Positions 27,401-49,666 of a stretch of 49,666 nt of DNA are shown here, piece after piece. Both the position numbers and the translations under genes were made by a program. The stretch spans positions 1 to 49,666 of IMG/VR virus record IMGVR_UViG_3300009515_000002; one strand, 5' to 3'. The DNA is from a virus. Position 1 is the first letter of the stretch, and each line of letters opens with the position of its first letter. The notes under the pieces are model-generated. The model saw nothing but the letters and a program-made list of their open reading frames with translations, had not been told where the DNA came from and ran no database searches.

Positions 27401-28477
27401 CACGCACCATTTACTGAAGAAGTGTGGATGAGTGACCTAGCAAACATTGCTAGGACTAGTGGCACGAAACGTGGTGCAGTTGTGGAAGCTGGAGCTAAGG
27501 CTCTTGAGAGCGCACGAGCATTAAGTGCAGCGTCTTTAAGTGGACGGGGAGCTTTCTACACCAGAGCTGACACTTGGAACCGGGCAGTGAGTTTCTTTGC
27601 ACAGCGTAAGAAAACTCTCGACGCTTGGAACAAGTATAAGAAGCATGGGGATGTTGATGTCTTCAACCAGGAAAGCGGGCTCGACTTTCTTGGTGGTCAG
27701 AGCATGACACAGAAGTTCTGGGATTTGGTGGAGAATGGGAATCCGAAGAGTCTAGAAACTGCGCTCGACTGGTCTGGGACCATGATGGCGAACGAAACTC
27801 AGTGGATCTACCAGAGTGGTGCAGGACCGAGTTTGATTTCCCAGGGCATTTGGAAGATGGCAGGACAGTATGGTACGTGGCCTGCATGGTACATTGAGCA
27901 CTTCCGGAGAGGTCTAACGCGGGGACTGTTCTACGGAAAGGGCGGAGCCAGACAGCAGTTCAAGAATCCTGATCGGATCAAGTTCGCGTTGAGGACTGGT
28001 GCACTTCATGGCGCGATCGTGTCGAGTGCCGCCGCGACAGGAATGGCCATGTATCGTTGGTCGCCGCTTGCGAGTATGTCCTTCTCTGGTGGACCGATGG
28101 TGGAGTTCGGCAAGGACATCACAGCGTTGATCGGAGGGAAGCTCACGACGGGAGGAAGCACGGCAGAACGTATGCTAGTTCTCGGTAAGTATGGTGCGCG
28201 GGACACTGGACATGGTGTAACAGGGGTTGACATGTTCGACGTGCTTCCGTTTACAGAGTTCCTTCCGTTCACGCCAGGGAGTGGGATCGATATCAAAGGT
28301 GTCGAGGGTTGGATGAAGCTGTTCACGAATGGTCCAGGGAAGTTGATTCCAGGGTCGCTGTTGCTCAATGACTTCCGGAAGGCATCGGAGCAGCCAGACG
28401 GGTTTAGTTTTGCACTAAGAGCCGCTGGCTTCCCGATTCGAGCACAGGGTAGTGAGTGGGGGGCGTTGAAGTTCTAG
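24404..28477 (+). CDS. Very large internal-virion/ejection protein (T7 gp16-slot)
   Basis: 1357 aa, GTG after GAGGAGG, last gene of the + block. Called by size and position. No transglycosylase or peptidase motif was recognised. Confidence 0.45.
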   Translation: MPETYSQALARLNSIQERDAEDPNSATGVVSRIQLERRRTGVTNSRVNLLDRQRDDVGIFGQFARGAVLGAVEPFAFLRPVGSVVESLESAVPDSGAETVARVAGNLAGFFVPLTPAMKIGGTAAKALRLTRNPTAILEIADAGANITRLSAKGRFVQGAVAGAAVTAGAPAEDPAERLVNTALAASVFGIGDAILPVVGKAIWGMMPTGRTVKALDRATTELVENGSIVDESSAAILGRAAAAADALFPKRALDDIGIAAQREAIQNGTARMFSSDLIPGHVRVVPGLPREAGISMDKVLGKAGGFDFAAVKPPVARGQSKTIDYLVFPKGEMRAEIVQQYEKQGFLKGQKVAIDGNDWTIIGYNSANKNVRLKYQDKTKTVSQADLLDRGILHPVASWTIPKVKDAPKLWTKYLDEVGIEPGKPFEAEFAKFIERHGVKPEQAEPLREYFTQRLVLDLARIAPEEWSILSAIKKKKFVVGEELEDPLGTLRAMAAQQGYSVHMGGPVNSGTVGKGVFELVNAFQPGASQKFPSVRAAMAWIRENPQPGIPRISDLVPGLPLPEEILFGYEGAATQVTRGAAGMGGMNHPKMNRLDRLFAPVTPRLSAIRNFANRLTEQSGGEFQGTKLWGALSDLQISLGKARNQMNPHVKTLEKIRGRTWNQNVRPEKMAAVNDLIEAPTKGFNFIMEDGRRIAPSLRDDIIKNNNLSAKEIKFADEMRQWWDTLFKEITPQARLTATSEEFLQVYAPIMRSMEHDAALKHLKTTLGSKFDQNLFDLLSKVDASGLTFANQVNPVTNAAHMLRGSMMHIWAGPQQVAANQEVNGVLAFFGRKWVGGRRGTEPATGKEIVAQVEELVKKGRQDIADRVAGAPGKEVQWDGSAYEQLFNMGKEYLSAVRGGAPETWYSVRIVADDFLKSTGVKLSEKDVDKLVNTVISLNYGAFMGYRPALAVRNMIQPFVTTYPMVGAKYLAHGLKMAGNKDNYKQLRRAGAVVSNAHAPFTEEVWMSDLANIARTSGTKRGAVVEAGAKALESARALSAASLSGRGAFYTRADTWNRAVSFFAQRKKTLDAWNKYKKHGDVDVFNQESGLDFLGGQSMTQKFWDLVENGNPKSLETALDWSGTMMANETQWIYQSGAGPSLISQGIWKMAGQYGTWPAWYIEHFRRGLTRGLFYGKGGARQQFKNPDRIKFALRTGALHGAIVSSAAATGMAMYRWSPLASMSFSGGPMVEFGKDITALIGGKLTTGGSTAERMLVLGKYGARDTGHGVTGVDMFDVLPFTEFLPFTPGSGIDIKGVEGWMKLFTNGPGKLIPGSLLLNDFRKASEQPDGFSFALRAAGFPIRAQGSEWGALKF

Positions 28478-28612
28478 TTCACCTACAGAGGTTTCGCACC
28501 CCCACACTCAGCCTTTCAGACGCCAATTCTAGCATCTAATCATCTAAGTTCCGTAGTCACTAACATGCCGATCACGTGCTCTGCACATGTAGGATGGCTA
28601 CGATAGGTGTAG

Positions 28613-28684
28613 TGCTCGGGGCAGGAATCGAACCTGCGACCTACCGGGCTTCAACCGGACGCTCTACCGCTGAGCTACCCGAGC
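28613..28684 (-). tRNA. tRNA, anticodon GAA (Phe) by manual folding
   Basis: The reverse complement folds as GCTCGGG-TA-GCTC-AGCGGTA-GAGC-G-TCCGG-TTGAAGC-CCGGT-AGGTC-GCAGG-TTCGATT-CCTGC-CCCGAGC-A. The cloverleaf is canonical except for a U27:U43 mismatch and G37. CCA is not encoded. Confidence 0.75.
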
Positions 28685-28688
28685 TGCT

Positions 28689-28703
28689 GTTCACCGAGTG
28701 AAC
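28689..28703. promoter_or_regulatory. Copy S3 of the dyad motif (GTTCAC-CGA-GTGAAC, perfect half-sites)
   Basis: Overlaps the last codons and stop of the 28691-28888 gene, 5 nt from the tRNA 5' end. Identical 15-mer at 19889-19903. Confidence 0.4.
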
Positions 28704-28888
28704 CTCTTTTCAGCGTCTGTTACTGCAAGCTCTTCTACCGTAAAGTAGTTTTCAGCCTGCAGCATGTTTAACGGCGTGCGGTCGTCCAGGTCTGGATGCG
28801 GTGCTCTTAACCACCGTAAACATTCATCGATATCCCATTGTGTAAGCTGATGAATGCGTGGAGCATACAGACCTGCTGTATCATACAT
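28691..28888 (-). CDS. DUF2384 (Xre/MbcA/ParS antitoxin C-terminal domain)-like small protein
   Basis: 65 aa counted from the ATG preceded by GGAGAA, overlapping the upstream gene as ATGTATGA. CLRWLRAPHPDLDDRTPLNMLQ matches the DUF2384 core W(L)..P.p.Lgg.tPl.ll. Confidence 0.5.
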   Translation of the reverse strand: MYDTAGLYAPRIHQLTQWDIDECLRWLRAPHPDLDDRTPLNMLQAENYFTVEELAVTDAEKRFTR

Positions 28889-29417
28889 TGAGAAACTTCT
28901 CCACTCGTTCCTCGTCTCCCTCAAACACCGCTATCATGATTGCCCACTCTCCGCAGGCTTGCCGGAAACACTTTTCGCTAGATAGGCCAGAATTGATAGG
29001 GTCGTCCTCAAGTCCTGTAGGGTATCCGTGTTCGCAGGGACCCCACGCTCCTTGTAGAACATACTCAATTGCTCGGAATCCATATCCAAGGGCTCGGAAG
29101 AATCGGGTGTCTGTCCCAACAGCGTAATGTGCGGCGACACGATCTACTCCTTCGATAAGGTTGAGGACTACAGTAGAGTACAGGTCATGATCGAACGGTA
29201 AGTCGTTGTAACGAAAGAAGCCACGGGGCTCGAGAGCTCCAGTTGCTACAAACATGGTCCATGGGATGATCGGTACGCCGACTCTCATGGCCTTTTCTCT
29301 TTTGTTGAACCCAGGGTCAGAACCGACGAGAAGCATGTCGGTTTCCTTGGTGACACTGGACTGGATCTTCGCACCGAGCATTAGCTCAAAGTGTTTGGTG
29401 GCTTCGTCGCGGGTCAT
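28881..29417 (-). CDS. BRCT-domain protein with an uncharacterised ~115-aa C-terminal domain
   Basis: 178 aa. TRDEATKHFELMLGAKIQSSVTKETDMLLVGSDPGFNKREKAMRVGVPIIPWTMF aligns position-for-position with the LigA BRCT (SRDDAK..LGAKV.GSVSKKTDLVIAGE.AGSKL.KA.ELGI.VI.E.EM). Confidence 0.6.
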   Translation of the reverse strand: MTRDEATKHFELMLGAKIQSSVTKETDMLLVGSDPGFNKREKAMRVGVPIIPWTMFVATGALEPRGFFRYNDLPFDHDLYSTVVLNLIEGVDRVAAHYAVGTDTRFFRALGYGFRAIEYVLQGAWGPCEHGYPTGLEDDPINSGLSSEKCFRQACGEWAIMIAVFEGDEERVEKFLNV

Positions 29418-29605
29418 GAGTTTTCCTTCACGGGAATGACTGCGAACACTCCCTGTTTGTGTAAAAGATCGAGCACTCTAATCCACTCAGGTGTAGGAAA
29501 AAGGGTCTCGCCATCACGATTTACAATGTCGTAACTGTAGCCATCACACTTTCCACAGTCATCGAAACGGACGTACGCGATAGCTTCAATTAAATTTGAG
29601 GTCAT
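29414..29605 (-). CDS. Hypothetical protein; its C-terminus may supply BRCT strand beta-1
   Basis: 63 aa. Ends in GVFAVIPVKENS, then an ATGA junction to MTRDEA. Joined, the two match LigA GKTVVLTGSLSQMSRDDA in register. Confidence 0.45.
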   Translation of the reverse strand: MTSNLIEAIAYVRFDDCGKCDGYSYDIVNRDGETLFPTPEWIRVLDLLHKQGVFAVIPVKENS

Positions 29606-31228: not shown

Positions 31229-31406
31229 TGAGCTTCTCTTGTAGCTCCGTGATAGACTCAACTAGCTTCAGGTTCTGCCATAGCAGATATTGGATGAGTA
31301 TGTATACGTCGTGACTCATTCCACCTTGGATACCTGCTAATGCGCCCGAGACCCTATAGTCTTCTGTGTATGTGTATGGAGTTGCATGCTCCTCGAAGTC
31401 ATCCAT
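31215..31406 (-). CDS. Hypothetical protein
   Basis: 63 aa, ATG overlapping the polymerase stop (TATGGATGA). Confidence 0.4.
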   Translation of the reverse strand: MDDFEEHATPYTYTEDYRVSGALAGIQGGMSHDVYILIQYLLWQNLKLVESITELQEKLNVQT

Positions 31407-33891
31407 ACTTCTCTAGCTCCCCGTAGTTAGGTCCGTAAGCGGCGTCGACAGGAATGATCACGTTGTGAGTTTCGAGAGGAACCGGTACGGTCATTAGTTC
31501 CATAGCCTTGGGGATAACCTCCGAACGAAGCTCGGTCGGGTACTGGAGTAGTAACGCATCGTGATTCTCGAGAACAATACGAGAGCTATTATGTCCACTA
31601 GCGCGCAGTTCACTAAAGATACCATCCTCGACTCTCCTCATTCCAATGCGAATCATGTCTGCGACGGCACTCTGTGCGAAGTGTGAGTATCCTTCCCGGA
31701 ACGTCTCCTTGTTCATCCGTCCGAAGAAGATTCGCTCTCGACCAAAGGCGTTGACCAGCTTACCGTTCTTTCGTATCTCGGAGGTGATCCACTCCCAGTA
31801 ACTTTCCAGCTCAGGGTAAGCTGCCATGTGAGCGGCTCGCATGACTTTGGCAAGTTTCCTAGTGATTCTTGGAACTCCGGGTTTGCCAGCGTCTCTTGCA
31901 AGTATCTTGTAGAACTTCTCTGGACCCATTTCATAATTGAATGCATGGTTGCATCTCTTCGCAAGGTAGCGATGGGGATACTCCTCAACGTCGTCCCAGT
32001 CAATGTCTAGGACCTTCGTCGCAGTGAGTCTATGCACGTCTTGGCCAGCTTCAAAGCACTCAATCATCGCCTTGATGCCAGCTTGGTAGGCTACGATCCT
32101 GGCTTCTGCTTGGGAATAATCCAGATAAGCGAATTCATATCCACGTTCTGCGACGTACATAGAGCGAAGTTCATGAGGCACGGTCTGCATGTTGATTCCG
32201 TAACCTTCAATTGTCTTAGAACATGCGCTACGTCCTGTCTCGGTACGTACAGGATTGTATGAGAAATAGGTGTACCCCTTTCCATCACACTTTACCTTGA
32301 GGTAAGAGGAGATCCGCTTGAGCTTTTGACGGATGGAGATGATAAGGAGTAGGCTCTCGTCACCAGTTTCGTTGTAAAGCTCACGCAATGAATCCTCGTC
32401 GGCACTGAGAGCTTTTGTCTTTCTGTTTCGTTTCTCCTTGAACTTTCGTATTCCATAGAGATACTCCAACAGATCCTTTCGTCCATTGACGTTGATTGCT
32501 GGCTCACCTTTCTGCACCCTCTTGGCTAGTCTTGCTGTGAACTCACGGATCTCAGGTTCTCTCTGTGGTGTGGTCTTGACAATATCGATCAGGCTCTCCA
32601 TCACGAAGATGTCGAGAGCCTCGTACTCAGCGTCGGCCTCGCCTTGAGTCTCTTCTTTCTGCCGCTCCATCTCAGCGACGTCGACCTTGATTCCATTCAC
32701 GATCATGTTCACGTAGATCGGAATGTCGGAGGTCATCAGACGATCATACAAAGTCCGATGACGAGGATTAGTAAGCTCGTCACTTTGCATAGCTTGAAAG
32801 GCTTCAAGTGTGGTACAAACATCCTTACCATTATACCGCAAGAATTGGAGGATGTCTGCTTCGTCCTTACCACCAGTCTTCCAGACTTTACCCTCGTCTT
32901 TGTAGTACGGCTCGCGAGTGTAGACTGATGCAATTACATCTAATCCTTTCCGAAGTTCTGGATATGCCACGTGTTGAGCAACCATTGTATCTTCGCGGTA
33001 GTTCTCAACTCGTATCCCATTATTCTTGAGAAGAAATGACTGATCGAAAATGCCATTCTGCGCGAGCTTCGGTGTGGGATTAGCAAGCAAGGCTTTGGCA
33101 ACAGCCATACGACCTGCGTCCCGTGTGGTAAGTATAAGAGCCCATGAGGGGTCCGTAGAAAAGCCCACGCAGTAGAGTTTTTGCTGGACGCACTCGATGT
33201 CATAGCTAAGAAGATCTCCTTTGTTGAGGGCGTCCAAGCATCTGGCAAGTGTAGTTGGATCTGGATCGATGTAGTATTCTCTCTCTGGGAGTCTGAGATC
33301 TGAAAACTTGGCATCAGTTGCAATCCTTTTAAAGTCCGTCGCAAGAAACACCAGCATTTGGTACTGCCGAAGCACCGCCGCAGGGTGAATCGTGGGGATA
33401 ACCTTCCGGCCCTCGATACGAGCCCAGGCCGCCGCAAGCTCGTCGTCCAACAGCCCGTGCGCGGCGAACAACTGCGCGCGCTCGAGATCCAACGTGACCG
33501 GCATGATCGAGCCACGACGTTTCGTGATGGCCTGGTGTCCTGTCAGTGCCCACAGAGCGTAGTTTCCGAGGGGGACAATGACGTTGCTGTCTGCCTCAGC
33601 CAGGTCCAGGATCAGCTCACGCCAACCGTGCATTACTTTCTCATTCGGAATCACCTTGCCCTTTTTGATTGGAGCCCAGGCTTTCATCTGATTACCTGGA
33701 GGCTGATACGGACAGAGATTCGTGATGAAGATGTTAGCAAGGTTGATCTTTGCGTCGGCGATTACATTACGCAGTAACTGACCAGAGACGCCCACAAAGG
33801 GGCGTCTCTGATGGACTTCATCACGTCCTGGCGCTTCGCCTACGATGGAGATCGGTGCTGGTTTGGGGCCAGAGGAGGGGACACGGGTCAT
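31399..33891 (-). CDS. Family-A DNA polymerase with 3'-5' exonuclease, fused to an N-terminal family-4 UDG-like domain
   Basis: 830 aa. UDG-4 motifs GEAPGRDE...PFVGVSGQLL and IHPAAVLR. Exo motifs YDIECV, NGIFDQSFL, YNGKDV. Pol motifs A DYSQAEARIVA, B RYLAKRCNHAFNYEMG, C ENHDALLL. Confidence 0.9.
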   Translation of the reverse strand: MTRVPSSGPKPAPISIVGEAPGRDEVHQRRPFVGVSGQLLRNVIADAKINLANIFITNLCPYQPPGNQMKAWAPIKKGKVIPNEKVMHGWRELILDLAEADSNVIVPLGNYALWALTGHQAITKRRGSIMPVTLDLERAQLFAAHGLLDDELAAAWARIEGRKVIPTIHPAAVLRQYQMLVFLATDFKRIATDAKFSDLRLPEREYYIDPDPTTLARCLDALNKGDLLSYDIECVQQKLYCVGFSTDPSWALILTTRDAGRMAVAKALLANPTPKLAQNGIFDQSFLLKNNGIRVENYREDTMVAQHVAYPELRKGLDVIASVYTREPYYKDEGKVWKTGGKDEADILQFLRYNGKDVCTTLEAFQAMQSDELTNPRHRTLYDRLMTSDIPIYVNMIVNGIKVDVAEMERQKEETQGEADAEYEALDIFVMESLIDIVKTTPQREPEIREFTARLAKRVQKGEPAINVNGRKDLLEYLYGIRKFKEKRNRKTKALSADEDSLRELYNETGDESLLLIISIRQKLKRISSYLKVKCDGKGYTYFSYNPVRTETGRSACSKTIEGYGINMQTVPHELRSMYVAERGYEFAYLDYSQAEARIVAYQAGIKAMIECFEAGQDVHRLTATKVLDIDWDDVEEYPHRYLAKRCNHAFNYEMGPEKFYKILARDAGKPGVPRITRKLAKVMRAAHMAAYPELESYWEWITSEIRKNGKLVNAFGRERIFFGRMNKETFREGYSHFAQSAVADMIRIGMRRVEDGIFSELRASGHNSSRIVLENHDALLLQYPTELRSEVIPKAMELMTVPVPLETHNVIIPVDAAYGPNYGELEKYG

Positions 33892-35257: not shown

Positions 35258-36550
35258 CTATACGACTGCGCTGGGAACGTTTCGAACGAGAAGCTCGACG
35301 CACTTTTGGTGGTTGTCCTTGTCCTTTTCACAGCCGACGAAAGACCGACCGAGTCTATCAGCGGCGACAAAGACAGAACCAGACCCAAACGTGGGGTCAA
35401 GTACTGCCATGCTTCCAAAAGAGAAGCGTTCCAGAATGTCTCCCATGAGATCCACAGGTTTCTGAGCGTAGTGGATTCTTGCGCTGCTATCCACCATAGG
35501 ATACGACAGTACATTACTCCTCCCTGTTGCGAACATCCTGGGATCACCCTTCGCGACTAAGAAGAAGGGCTCGTAGGCGTTAATGGTAGTTCGAGCTGGG
35601 TCATTTTGGCTGCCTTTCTTGTTAGTCTTGAACCACATGAAGGGCACCGGAAAGACTTTAAAGCCAACAGATTCAAGAAGGGTGTAGAGTCTCTCGTAAT
35701 ACTGGATGCCAAACCAAGCAACCGCGTAAGTGTCCTCTCTAAGGACTCGATAGAGTTCAGGTACGAGGTTGACTGCTGTTTGGATTCCTGTTTCGGCGTC
35801 GTCGTCGAAGGTTCCATAGTGGTGGTGACGGTCGTAAGAGTCAATTCCGATTCCCCAGGGTGGGTCGAAGTTGACAAAGTCGATGCTGGCGTCTGGAACT
35901 TTGCTGATCCACTTGATCGCGTCGCCACAGTGCAGTGCCTCCTTGTACTCCATCACCTTGTCAGGACGTTCCTTCTGACTACGGGCAATGAGCTCTTCGA
36001 GTTTGACTTTCGTTTTGAGACTACGGTATGCACCAGCAACGCTGTTCGCTTGAAGTAGCTCTGCTCGACCACCCTTCACAGCCTCGGCTACAGTCAGTGC
36101 CATCGAGACGTGACCTTTTGAACGGCCCAGCTTCTTTGCCATTTGGCGAGTCGTGATAGTCTTACCGTCCTTTGCCTCGAAGACTGTCTTGAGCTTGGCT
36201 ATCGCGAGGGCTTCTTCTGCCTTGGAGAACTGCTTCCGGTAGACGTTCTCTTCGTACTCGATAAGTAGTTGGTCGTACTCTTCCAGATCTTTGAAGTCGA
36301 CCGCGAGGATCTGACCTGGGTCTAATCCCTTGATGCTCCGAGGAGGGTCCTCCGCACCAAGAAAGATTGCAGCTGTGAGTCGTCGAAACCCTGCGACTAG
36401 TTCACCGTTGGACACTACAATCGGTTGTATCTGTCCGTTGGCGACAAGACTCTCACCTAGTTCTGTGATGTTTCCTGGATCTTTCCTGACACGCTCACCG
36501 ATTTTGACGCCGGTGGCCTGGAGTGTCAGGATCTTCTTGGTCATTGTCAC
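35258..36550 (-). CDS. ParB-like N-terminal domain fused to a beta-class N6A/N4C DNA methyltransferase
   Basis: 430 aa. ParB box IQPIVVSNGELVAGFRRLTAA; motif IV DFVNFDPPWGIG precedes motif I VLDPTFGSGSV. Confidence 0.8.
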   Translation of the reverse strand: MTMTKKILTLQATGVKIGERVRKDPGNITELGESLVANGQIQPIVVSNGELVAGFRRLTAAIFLGAEDPPRSIKGLDPGQILAVDFKDLEEYDQLLIEYEENVYRKQFSKAEEALAIAKLKTVFEAKDGKTITTRQMAKKLGRSKGHVSMALTVAEAVKGGRAELLQANSVAGAYRSLKTKVKLEELIARSQKERPDKVMEYKEALHCGDAIKWISKVPDASIDFVNFDPPWGIGIDSYDRHHHYGTFDDDAETGIQTAVNLVPELYRVLREDTYAVAWFGIQYYERLYTLLESVGFKVFPVPFMWFKTNKKGSQNDPARTTINAYEPFFLVAKGDPRMFATGRSNVLSYPMVDSSARIHYAQKPVDLMGDILERFSFGSMAVLDPTFGSGSVFVAADRLGRSFVGCEKDKDNHQKCVELLVRNVPSAVV

Positions 36551-39232: not shown

Positions 39233-39419
39233 CAGCTGGCTCCATCGGCATGAGTTTGTCGTAGATGTCCGTGATCTTGTAGCTCTCCGGGTTGTCTCTC
39301 CTCCAGTCTACATAAATCCGGAGAAGATCCCTGACCACAGGACTCTTCTTGACGTGCGGAGGCAGAGCCTCTTCAAACTCTGCATTGAGCGCGTCATCAA
39401 CTTCCAAGGTGAGCTTCAT
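39219..39419 (-). CDS. Putative ribbon-helix-helix (CopG/Arc-like) DNA-binding protein
   Basis: 66 aa. KLTLEVDDALNAEFEEAL....KSPVVRDLLRIYV fits the beta-strand/helix/helix RHH pattern. Confidence 0.4.
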   Translation of the reverse strand: MKLTLEVDDALNAEFEEALPPHVKKSPVVRDLLRIYVDWRRDNPESYKITDIYDKLMPMEPAGDTS

Positions 39420-39759
39420 CTTCCTCTACTCCTATAAGCATGGTCTCCGCGTCGAAGGGCCGTAGGATATAGTCTTGGTACAGCGGGTCCCAATACAGGA
39501 AGTTGACAACGCCAAACCTTTTGACGAGTGCTGCCGCACAGATCCCTGTAATGAGCGGTGACCCTGATGCTAGGAGATAATCCTCGGCTTCTGCACTTTC
39601 GAGTTTTGTTAGGATTTCCCCAGCAAGACGATCAGTATGGAACAAGTCCACGCGACCGCGTGTCAGGACTACTAAGTCTCCAAACCTCTTGGCCCCTTCG
39701 TAGTTGTGATACCCAAGATTCGTTATGAAGACCTTGCGGCCAGTGGGTGATTTAGACAT
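39397..39759 (-). CDS. Hypothetical protein
   Basis: 120 aa from the ATG sharing one base with the upstream stop (TAATG). Confidence 0.45.
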   Translation of the reverse strand: MSKSPTGRKVFITNLGYHNYEGAKRFGDLVVLTRGRVDLFHTDRLAGEILTKLESAEAEDYLLASGSPLITGICAAALVKRFGVVNFLYWDPLYQDYILRPFDAETMLIGVEEDEAHLGS

Positions 39760-39965
39760 TACAGTGCCTTCAATCCTTTCCAAGGTTTGCCTGTCTTTGA
39801 AGACACGTTAGGAGCTAACCATCGGTGGTGTGGGCATCGCTGACCAGGACCAATCAGTTTTCCTGTACCGAAAGCCTTCTTGCAATCAGGGCAAGGATGG
39901 CAATGTTCGCGGTATTCCCTGCGACTGGTGTTCACATCTTTCCAGAAATCACCAGAATCTCCCAT
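39759..39965 (-). CDS. Small Zn-ribbon protein
   Basis: 68 aa. HCHPCPDC...CPHH. Confidence 0.45.
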   Translation of the reverse strand: MGDSGDFWKDVNTSRREYREHCHPCPDCKKAFGTGKLIGPGQRCPHHRWLAPNVSSKTGKPWKGLKAL

Positions 39966-45199: not shown

Positions 45200-45389
45200 C
45201 CTTTGGCCTCCTTGTAGTCGCCCCGATAAACGGATGCTCTTCCTTGAGCTTGATAACCGCGAGTGCGAGATTCATGGCCATCGGTGCGTGTTTCTTACAG
45301 AGAGGTCGTTTTCCCACGTATACTTTCGGGAACCTCACAGGTCTGTCACACACCAAGCATGGTCGGGATGGTAGCGAGTCGAAGTTCAT
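45192..45389 (-). CDS. Small Zn-ribbon-like protein
   Basis: 65 aa. CLVC...CKKH. Confidence 0.4.
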   Translation of the reverse strand: MNFDSLPSRPCLVCDRPVRFPKVYVGKRPLCKKHAPMAMNLALAVIKLKEEHPFIGATTRRPKDD

Positions 45390-45763
45390 TTGAACCCCAG
45401 CAGTGTTTCCCAGATACCCTGGAGAAACGCAAAAGTCAACGGTGCAGCTTTCTCAAGCTGTGCGAGTCCTGTGCCGACGCCGTCCTCAGGAAGAACTACG
45501 AGTTCGTTTCTCATGAGATGTCGCCACACTGGAGCGAAGTCCATGATGAGACTGTCACAATGAGCGTTGTAATCCTTGTCGCTCCAGAACACTCCTGGTG
45601 ACTCCAGCGTCGCGATTCCAATTGCGTTAGGCTCACCTCGCATCTCCTTTGCTTGTCCGCCTAGTCCGACGCGGCGCTCGTTGTCTCCGAAGACGTAGAG
45701 GACTTCGCGATTGGCGATCAAGTCCTCTCGTTTGATCCACTTTTGTGTGATGACTGGCATCAA
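45386..45763 (-). CDS. Hypothetical protein
   Basis: 125 aa. The segment VLYVFGDNERRVGLGGQAKEMRGEPNAIGIAT recalls a phage non-structural protein family (from memory only). Confidence 0.45.
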   Translation of the reverse strand: MMPVITQKWIKREDLIANREVLYVFGDNERRVGLGGQAKEMRGEPNAIGIATLESPGVFWSDKDYNAHCDSLIMDFAPVWRHLMRNELVVLPEDGVGTGLAQLEKAAPLTFAFLQGIWETLLGFK

Positions 45764-49572: not shown

Positions 49573-49599
49573 CGAAACGCTACACCCTGTAGCGTTTCG
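49573..49599. promoter_or_regulatory. Perfect 12-3-12 palindrome CGAAACGCTACA-CCC-TGTAGCGTTTCG
   Basis: The arms are exact reverse complements. The right arm is the first 12 nt of the terminal repeat. Function unknown (enhancer-like site, packaging site or ori element). Confidence 0.85.
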
Positions 49600-49666
49600 C
49601 TCCACGCGTAAGTCGTTGCCCTGTAGGGGTTTGCGTTTGGTGTAGCGTTTCGCTCCAACGCAAGTC
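49588..49666. repeat. Right copy of the exact 79-bp terminal direct repeat
   Basis: Identical to 1-79. Confidence 0.95.

Follow-up and report, generated by a model that had tools for sequence, protein, structure and literature searches.

A putative orphan DUF2384 antitoxin domain and a truncated BRCT protein lie side by side, next to a tRNA gene, at the end of a phage replication block

This article concerns two small overlapping genes in the virus record IMGVR_UViG_3300009515_000002, one coding for a BRCT-domain protein and the other for a putative stand-alone DUF2384 (antitoxin-type) domain, which are followed by a tRNA gene. The whole record of 49,666 nucleotides (positions 1 to 49,666, hereafter the window) was analysed; it carries an exact direct terminal repeat of 79 bp (1-79 = 49588-49666) and represents a phage genome in full, whether terminally redundant or assembled as a circle, with a GC content of 51.8%. 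Virion genes occupy the plus strand up to position 28477, the last of them encoding a 1357-aa protein, and the minus strand carries a block of genes between about 49.4 kb and 28691, whose products are a PD-(D/E)XK exonuclease, a Sak4-like annealase, SSB, a ParB-methylase, a PolA with uracil-DNA glycosylase (UDG) and exonuclease domains, and a DUF3987 primase/helicase. The block ends with open reading frames (ORFs) of 67, 117 and 63 aa, then a 178-aa ORF, whose product is here called BRCT-C after its BRCT part and its C-terminal domain (C-domain), and lastly a 65-aa ORF. The features in question are:

29414..29605, minus strand: 63-aa orphan ORF, overlapping the BRCT-C start by ATGA and unrelated to the DUF7768 gene that holds this position in relatives
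28881..29417, minus strand: 178-aa BRCT-C protein, of a seven-sequence metagenomic phage family, with a conserved position after the DUF3987 primase/helicase
29238..29417, minus strand: predicted LigA/RFC1-class BRCT sub-domain (residues 1-60), which begins at helix alpha1, strand beta1 not being encoded
28884..29237, minus strand: C-domain (residues 61-178), with predicted helices at 77-100, 104-125 and 140-166
28691..28888, minus strand: 65-aa ORF (MYDTAGLY...KRFTR), a putative stand-alone DUF2384 domain with no helix-turn-helix (HTH) and no cognate toxin gene
28724..28837, minus strand: conserved DUF2384 core (residues 18-55, WDIDECLRWLRAPHPDLDDRTPLNMLQAENYFTVEELA), as aligned with antitoxins
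28612..28684, minus strand: tRNA-Phe(GAA), from ARAGORN, with an Rfam score of 70.7 bits

A sequence-only reading of this DNA had proposed that the region is a terminal accessory module, and on the layout it was accurate: the ORF list and inspection of the sequence return the same coordinates, strand and 8-nt overlap, and ARAGORN and Rfam place the tRNA, the sole one of the genome, 6 nt past the stop codon of the 65-aa ORF. The overlap, ATGTATGA, joins the ATG of the 65-aa ORF to the stop of the 178-aa gene; Shine-Dalgarno (SD)-like motifs precede the starts of both genes, that of the smaller being GGAG, 10 nt ahead of its ATG, and the 65-aa ORF is probably translationally coupled to BRCT-C. 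An alternative TTG start at 28924 would lengthen the product to 77 aa, the maximum that the small ORF allows from stop to stop. Repeats flanking the DUF2384/tRNA insert were looked for and nothing convincing emerged, promoter and terminator scans stayed at background level, PADLOC returned nothing meaningful, and blastn of the region against phage records matched tRNA genes only. As regards the tRNA, with its GAA anticodon, phenylalanine is written TTC 229 times and TTT 149 times in 15 long ORFs.

The DUF2384 assignment of the 65-aa ORF is carried by several comparisons. Pfam PF09722 matches residues 24-45 at E 1.8e-5 (25.0 bits, the threshold being 24.5), and TIGR02293 (E 3.7e-4) and Xre_ParS_antitoxin (E 2.5e-3) of NCBIfam match as well, both far below their full-length cut-offs. 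An hhalign comparison with the solved Pseudomonas putida Xre (6GW6_B) and Mycobacterium tuberculosis MbcA (6FKG_C) aligned residues 20-55 with positions 99-135 of 137 (P 3.9e-4), and BLASTP against 6GW6_B gave E 1e-4. Weak tblastn matches in plasmids included four genes annotated as MbcA/ParS/Xre antitoxins, and in all three of the plasmid antitoxin loci examined the antitoxin gene lies directly upstream of a RES gene; the three RES-linked antitoxins aligned with the 65-aa ORF at an hhalign probability of 96%, these having been chosen by similarity to the query, and the test against 6GW6_B and 6FKG_C being the unbiased one. A hidden Markov model (HMM) built from the same three antitoxins matched the 65-aa ORF and no other among 658 six-frame ORFs of the genome (E 1.5e-8). 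In these alignments the 65-aa ORF and bona fide antitoxins end no more than a few residues apart, and the ORF pairs solely with the C-terminal third of proteins of 122-225 aa, the N-terminal HTH/linker part being absent. Thus the 65-aa ORF would be a stand-alone C-terminal toxin-binding domain of the Xre/MbcA/ParS type, as the alignments over some 36 residues, with a similarity beyond chance, support. The earlier proposal of a DUF2384-like product without HTH is borne out in this way, as is its remark that the gene order is reversed relative to xre-res pairs.

The 178-aa protein had been said to carry a LigA-like BRCT domain, and it does so with one peculiarity. Taken alone, the protein matches PF00533 at E 1.4e-3 (19.3 bits, threshold 21.3) over residues 1-51, equivalent to profile positions 19-69 of 78, and it is also matched by the NAD-ligase family PHROG 3869 (E 3.9e-8) and by NCBIfam LigA (E 1e-7). 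All six BRCT-C family members compared match PF00533, the best at E 2.9e-9, and the family profile aligns with the solved BRCT domains of LigA (Thermus and E. coli) and human RFC1 at E 3-5e-6, as well as with the BRCT of the T5-type ligase subunit B. Residues 1-60 therefore read as an N-terminally incomplete BRCT of the LigA/RFC1 class. The alignments all begin some 20 residues into the domain (profile position 19 of 78, residue 23 of 1L7B, residue 612 of E. coli LigA), so that strand beta1 is missing and a complete beta1-alpha1-beta2-beta3-alpha2-beta4-alpha3 unit is not found, and this holds for every member of the family. Arg3 and Lys39 are invariant in the family and the conserved tryptophan, W53, is also kept; Arg3 and Lys39 occupy what we take to be the phosphate-contacting positions of the RFC1 and LigA BRCT domains.

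The loss of beta1 is not an annotation artefact, since the start residue is shared by all BRCT-C relatives, each of the seven loci has an in-frame stop 0-20 codons ahead of the start (two codons or fewer in four of them), and the upstream genes and their frames vary among loci, each start having its own SD-like motif. Only in the window does the preceding 63-aa ORF close with a C-terminal stretch (QGVFAVIPVKENS) that looks like beta1. The two ORFs might be one gene, divided by a -1 frameshift or an assembly split and coding for a complete BRCT. With the two fused, the Pfam BRCT match does improve, scoring 23.2 bits where BRCT-C alone had 19.3 and reaching back to profile position 13, and the junction gives a string, ..GVFAVIPVKENS-MTRDEA, that resembles beta1 plus loop. 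Yet the shared start residue and the upstream stops, frames and motifs just described all speak against it, and the 63-aa ORF has no kinship to the DUF7768 gene upstream of BRCT-C in the relatives; the fusion was rejected as very unlikely, and the gain in score is probably a coincidence specific to the window.

What follows the BRCT part is harder to place, as had been said of it before. Residues 61-178 have no Pfam match even at E<=10 and no known homologue outside the BRCT-C family. An AlphaFold2 model from a six-sequence alignment (mean predicted local distance difference test score, pLDDT, of 58 for the 178-aa protein) gives the C-domain three long helices at pLDDT 70-84, and a Foldseek search of this model, of moderate confidence only, returned nothing from PDB or BFVD, ADP-ribosyltransferase (ART) folds included. 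The sequence-only reading had seen in this domain a motif compatible with RES/ART-type toxins. The string GFFRYNDL...Y...E does exist in the protein; however, nowhere is the six-member alignment less conserved than across the F-R-x-N...Y...E segment (residues 66-90), the motif residues vary, and hhalign of the family against three RES toxins gave a probability of 0.1%. With no Pfam match, an all-helical model and an unconserved motif besides, the RES/ART assignment is unsupported. Of the profile and structure checks that had been suggested, the one for DUF2384 in the small ORF thus came out positively and the one for RES (PF08808) in the C-domain negatively.

How rare BRCT-C is, and in what company it travels, became apparent from searches of very large collections. 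An exhaustive phmmer search with the C-domain over 1.84 billion representatives found one relative, from which a profile search led to a family of six at 33-37% identity to the window protein; counting the cluster member P0010, the family comprises seven sequences out of roughly 15 billion, all of them metagenomic. In word-indexed homology searches the 178-aa and 65-aa proteins matched only themselves, scans of IMG/VR found nothing, GTDB genomes and JGI metagenomes yielded LigA BRCT matches only, and tblastn against phages gave BRCT-only matches or none. The related loci (L001-L006) share the order PolA, DUF3987 primase, DUF7768, BRCT-C, variable small ORFs and a convergent large virion gene, their primase being 50% identical to that of the window and their large virion protein, the homologue of the 1357-aa protein, 27-39%; for the clade the block reads exonuclease, Sak4, SSB, ParB-methylase, UDG-PolA, DUF3987 primase/helicase and BRCT-C. 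The DUF7768 gene, whose product by eye resembles nucleoside 2-deoxyribosyltransferase, stands directly upstream of BRCT-C in L001 (26-403), L002 (1539-1868), L005 (3-197) and L006 (1-189) and overlaps it by 4-77 nt, whereas the window has three orphan ORFs there instead.

Directly after BRCT-C each relative carries cargo of its own. The slot of L001 holds a MazG-like ORF (802-1119, a weak Pfam match) and a secreted 126-aa protein, and the other relatives carry ORFs of 62 to 119 aa for membrane or secreted proteins, with signal peptides or transmembrane segments, the one in L006 being cut at 99 aa by the contig end. A DUF2384 ORF follows BRCT-C in none of the five related loci, hence in one of six distinct family loci when the window is counted, and L001, the one related locus scanned for tRNAs, has none. 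(L064, also scanned and without a tRNA, turned out to be an unrelated LigA locus and was set aside.) On this comparison BRCT-C is to be regarded as a conserved clade gene, and the DUF2384 ORF and tRNA as cargo unique to this genome.

A toxin partner was sought throughout the phage. An HMM built from three RES toxins matched none of the 658 six-frame ORFs, and Pfam scans of about 40 phage proteins, the adjacent 1357-aa virion protein among them, revealed no RES or ART domain; nor did the proteins scanned include a phage-encoded ligase. The 65-aa ORF accordingly appears to be an antitoxin homologue that sits, with no cognate toxin, in a variable accessory slot.

The reading I favour, to which I would give somewhat less than an even chance, is that the region consists of two independently inherited genes and a tRNA and is not a toxin-antitoxin-like module, BRCT-C being a core replication gene and the 65-aa ORF counter-defence cargo. 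It starts from what is observed: the domain assignments, the synteny, the lack of a RES gene among the scanned proteins and the lack of the gene pair in the relatives. By its alignments and position BRCT-C would be a core gene specific to the lineage and the last of the replication/recombination block. Its BRCT may bind 5'-phosphate nicks, DNA ends or a partner of host LigA, and the protein may mimic the LigA BRCT as a replication adaptor, with the helical C-domain docking on another replisome or host factor; such a role is suggested because of the BRCT class, the invariant Arg3 and Lys39, the position in the replication block and the lack of a ligase among the scanned proteins. The 65-aa ORF and tRNA-Phe would be cargo in the variable stretch that separates BRCT-C from the convergent virion gene. 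During infection the 65-aa product might bind a host RES-family NAD+ phosphorylase/NADase or a ParT-type ADP-ribosyltransferase, its C-terminal helix plugging the toxin active site as cognate antitoxins do, and toxin-driven abortive infection would thereby be prevented once the host antitoxin decays. For the cognate antitoxins it is documented that the DUF2384 domain binds the RES toxin and that the C-terminus occludes its active site (PMC7758455; PMC11535050; PMC12204516), phage orphan antitoxins have a precedent as counter-defence against DarTG (PMC11825919; PMC13309987), and a survey lists complete RES-HTH toxin-antitoxin pairs in some phages (PMC9503650). The sequence-only reading had offered, as one of two hypotheses, a stand-alone antitoxin domain directed at host RES/ParT toxins, and this is the best reading of the one short domain match in one genome; an orphan antitoxin that would neutralise a host RES/ParT toxin is, by analogy, the simplest account of a bare domain in a cargo slot.

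Several observations weigh against the favoured reading and should be set beside it. The DUF2384 match is short (22-36 residues) and exceeds the Pfam threshold by 0.5 bit, and the DxDGRTPL core of the 65-aa ORF resembles the ankyrin-repeat consensus. A PDB search with the antitoxin profile also found designed ankyrin-repeat proteins, matching through the same D-x-D-G-R-T-P-L, and short DUF2384 matches are therefore prone to false positives of this kind. A single-sequence AlphaFold2 model of the 65-aa ORF shows three helices at low confidence (pLDDT 58), Foldseek of this model against PDB produced no antitoxin structure and nothing better than E 1.8, and phmmer against PDB produced nothing. In the other phages and viral contigs searched no homologue of the ORF turned up, so that it stands as a singleton and offers no measure of conservation. 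As of 2024 no RES toxin-antitoxin system had been tied to phage defence, and NatRT was without effect on more than 50 phages (PMC11535050). Among cultured phages, the PolA most similar to that of the window shares 27.6% identity with it. For BRCT-C, no homologue ties the C-domain to an activity, and the missing beta1, together with a model in which residues 1-60 score pLDDT 36-55 with no strands predicted (low confidence), calls even the folding of the BRCT part into question.

The other of the two original hypotheses joined the genes into one system, with BRCT-C as a BRCT-tethered NAD-utilising effector of RES/ART type and the DUF2384 ORF as its dedicated inhibitor. The 8-nt overlap, which makes co-translation likely, and the habit of DUF2384 domains of partnering an adjacent toxin, as in the plasmid xre-res loci, would suit such a design, yet nothing in the C-domain profile, fold or motif conservation recalls a toxin, as set out above, and an effector that is toxic could hardly be retained once its inhibitor was gone, whereas five relatives keep BRCT-C with no DUF2384 ORF beside it. 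For this reason the effector/inhibitor pair is largely refuted and I regard it as highly improbable; what had been taken for a module is a rare, conserved BRCT-helical protein placed next to a singleton orphan antitoxin domain and a tRNA. The original interpretation as a whole is consequently upheld in part, in its domain and layout claims, and given up where it made the C-domain a toxin and the two genes a unit.

Two further alternatives concern the nature of the 65-aa ORF itself. It could be a non-functional remnant of a captured host xre-res antitoxin, or a chance look-alike, that arrived together with the inserted tRNA; a singleton that lacks homologues on which selection could be tested, with a short and marginal match and with the N-terminal half of full antitoxins gone, is what such a remnant would leave. 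Its GC content at third codon positions (0.44 against 0.53-0.60 in the neighbouring genes) points the same way; like the overall GC it is slightly low, in an ORF that is too short for these values to be interpreted. On the other side stand an unbroken reading frame, an SD motif, a start ATG coupled to the stop of the gene before it, a core motif and C-terminus that co-align with bona fide antitoxins, and the fact that phage genomes seldom keep dead DNA, which make the remnant unlikely though worth taking seriously. Alternatively, the domain may have been co-opted as a regulator or adaptor for a partner other than RES, be it BRCT-C, another phage protein or another host enzyme, in keeping with the lack of a RES gene in the phage, the tight coupling to BRCT-C and a divergence that puts the full-length NCBIfam antitoxin models far below their cut-offs. 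However, RES/ParT toxin binding is the role of the domain in every characterised case (PMC7758455; PMC12204516) and BRCT-C evidently works in the relatives without a DUF2384 ORF, so co-option seems rather improbable. Returning to counter-defence cargo beside a core gene, its most far-reaching form would make the 65-aa ORF a working minimal DUF2384 plug against host NAD+-targeting RES/ParT toxins, and thereby the first indication of RES toxin-antitoxin systems in abortive-infection immunity, and would make BRCT-C a new, incomplete BRCT that lacks its central strand and attains its fold only when a partner at replication nicks supplies one by strand complementation. I consider this full version possible but doubtful.

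These possibilities deserve attention since RES-Xre, MbcTA, ParST and NatRT systems occur widely, M. tuberculosis and P. aeruginosa being among the bacteria that have them, and their physiological role has yet to be settled. A phage gene consisting of the toxin-binding domain alone would, if true, be indirect evidence that phages meet RES toxins, and the 65-aa peptide would be a minimal natural inhibitor of NAD+ phosphorylase toxins and a possible tool; the counter-defence reading matters to that extent, on the basis of one short domain match in one genome. The BRCT-C family is of value in its own right as a conserved, uncharacterised replication-module protein with an oddly truncated BRCT, in a phage clade without cultured relatives.

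A few observations were made elsewhere in the genome. The DNA polymerase A (31399-33891, minus strand) begins with a UDG-superfamily domain (PF03167, E 4.5e-19, residues 6-182) ahead of its 3'-5' exonuclease and polymerase domains, and the gene at 35258-36550 (minus strand), also in the replication block, fuses a ParB N-terminal domain to an N6/N4 DNA methyltransferase. In the early region only two ORFs have family matches, 45386-45763 (minus strand; DUF7831, E 5e-40) and 39397-39783 (minus strand; Pam3_gp32-like, E 7e-15), and nine other early ORFs of 111-270 aa have no match in Pfam or PHROG. The first plus-strand ORF (868-1404) shows a LuxR/GerE-type HTH at 23.5 bits, exactly at the Pfam threshold, and its product may be a small terminase or a regulator.

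Set against known systems, the two genes resemble different things to different degrees. To the RES-domain toxins (PF08808; MbcT, ParT, NatT and the P. putida RES) BRCT-C has no demonstrable likeness, the sole link being the neighbouring DUF2384 ORF: profile similarity is lacking, the prediction is all-alpha and not an ART fold, and there is no conserved catalytic R...E/Y...S/N. To the BRCT domains of the LigA/RFC1 class (1L7B, 2OWO, 2EBU/2K6G; 9HU3_B) the similarity extends from alpha1 to alpha3 at E 3e-6 to 4e-4, with the positions of W53, Arg3 and Lys39 kept; unlike them, the BRCT-C family does without about 20 N-terminal residues that include the central strand beta1, and its BRCT is joined to a novel helical domain of about 115 aa in place of a ligase or clamp-loader.

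Phages do use orphan antitoxins in counter-defence, T4 Dmd being one of them. The T4-like anti-DarTG1 NADAR/antitoxin-like enzymes (PMC11825919) and a chimallivirus DarG2-like protein (PMC13309987) likewise lack a toxin and lie in accessory gene space. The known examples act against DarT or RnlA/LsoA toxins and have been validated experimentally, and a phage orphan of the DUF2384 type is not described in the literature searched. The closest counterparts remain the Xre/MbcA/ParS antitoxins themselves (PF09722; 6GW6, 6FKG, 6D0H, 8GUG). At 113-225 aa they are far longer than the 65 aa found here, which omit the HTH or linker half (a feature of many PF09722 members, though not of all), and they are encoded upstream of their toxins, whereas the 65-aa ORF follows an unrelated gene with no adjacent RES or ParT, in what is apparently a lytic-type phage replication block. 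What the 65-aa ORF shares with them is the W-x-x-x-P...(G/D)-R-T-P-L core and the C-terminal helix, and it is their last 40 or so residues that align with it, down to the same end point.

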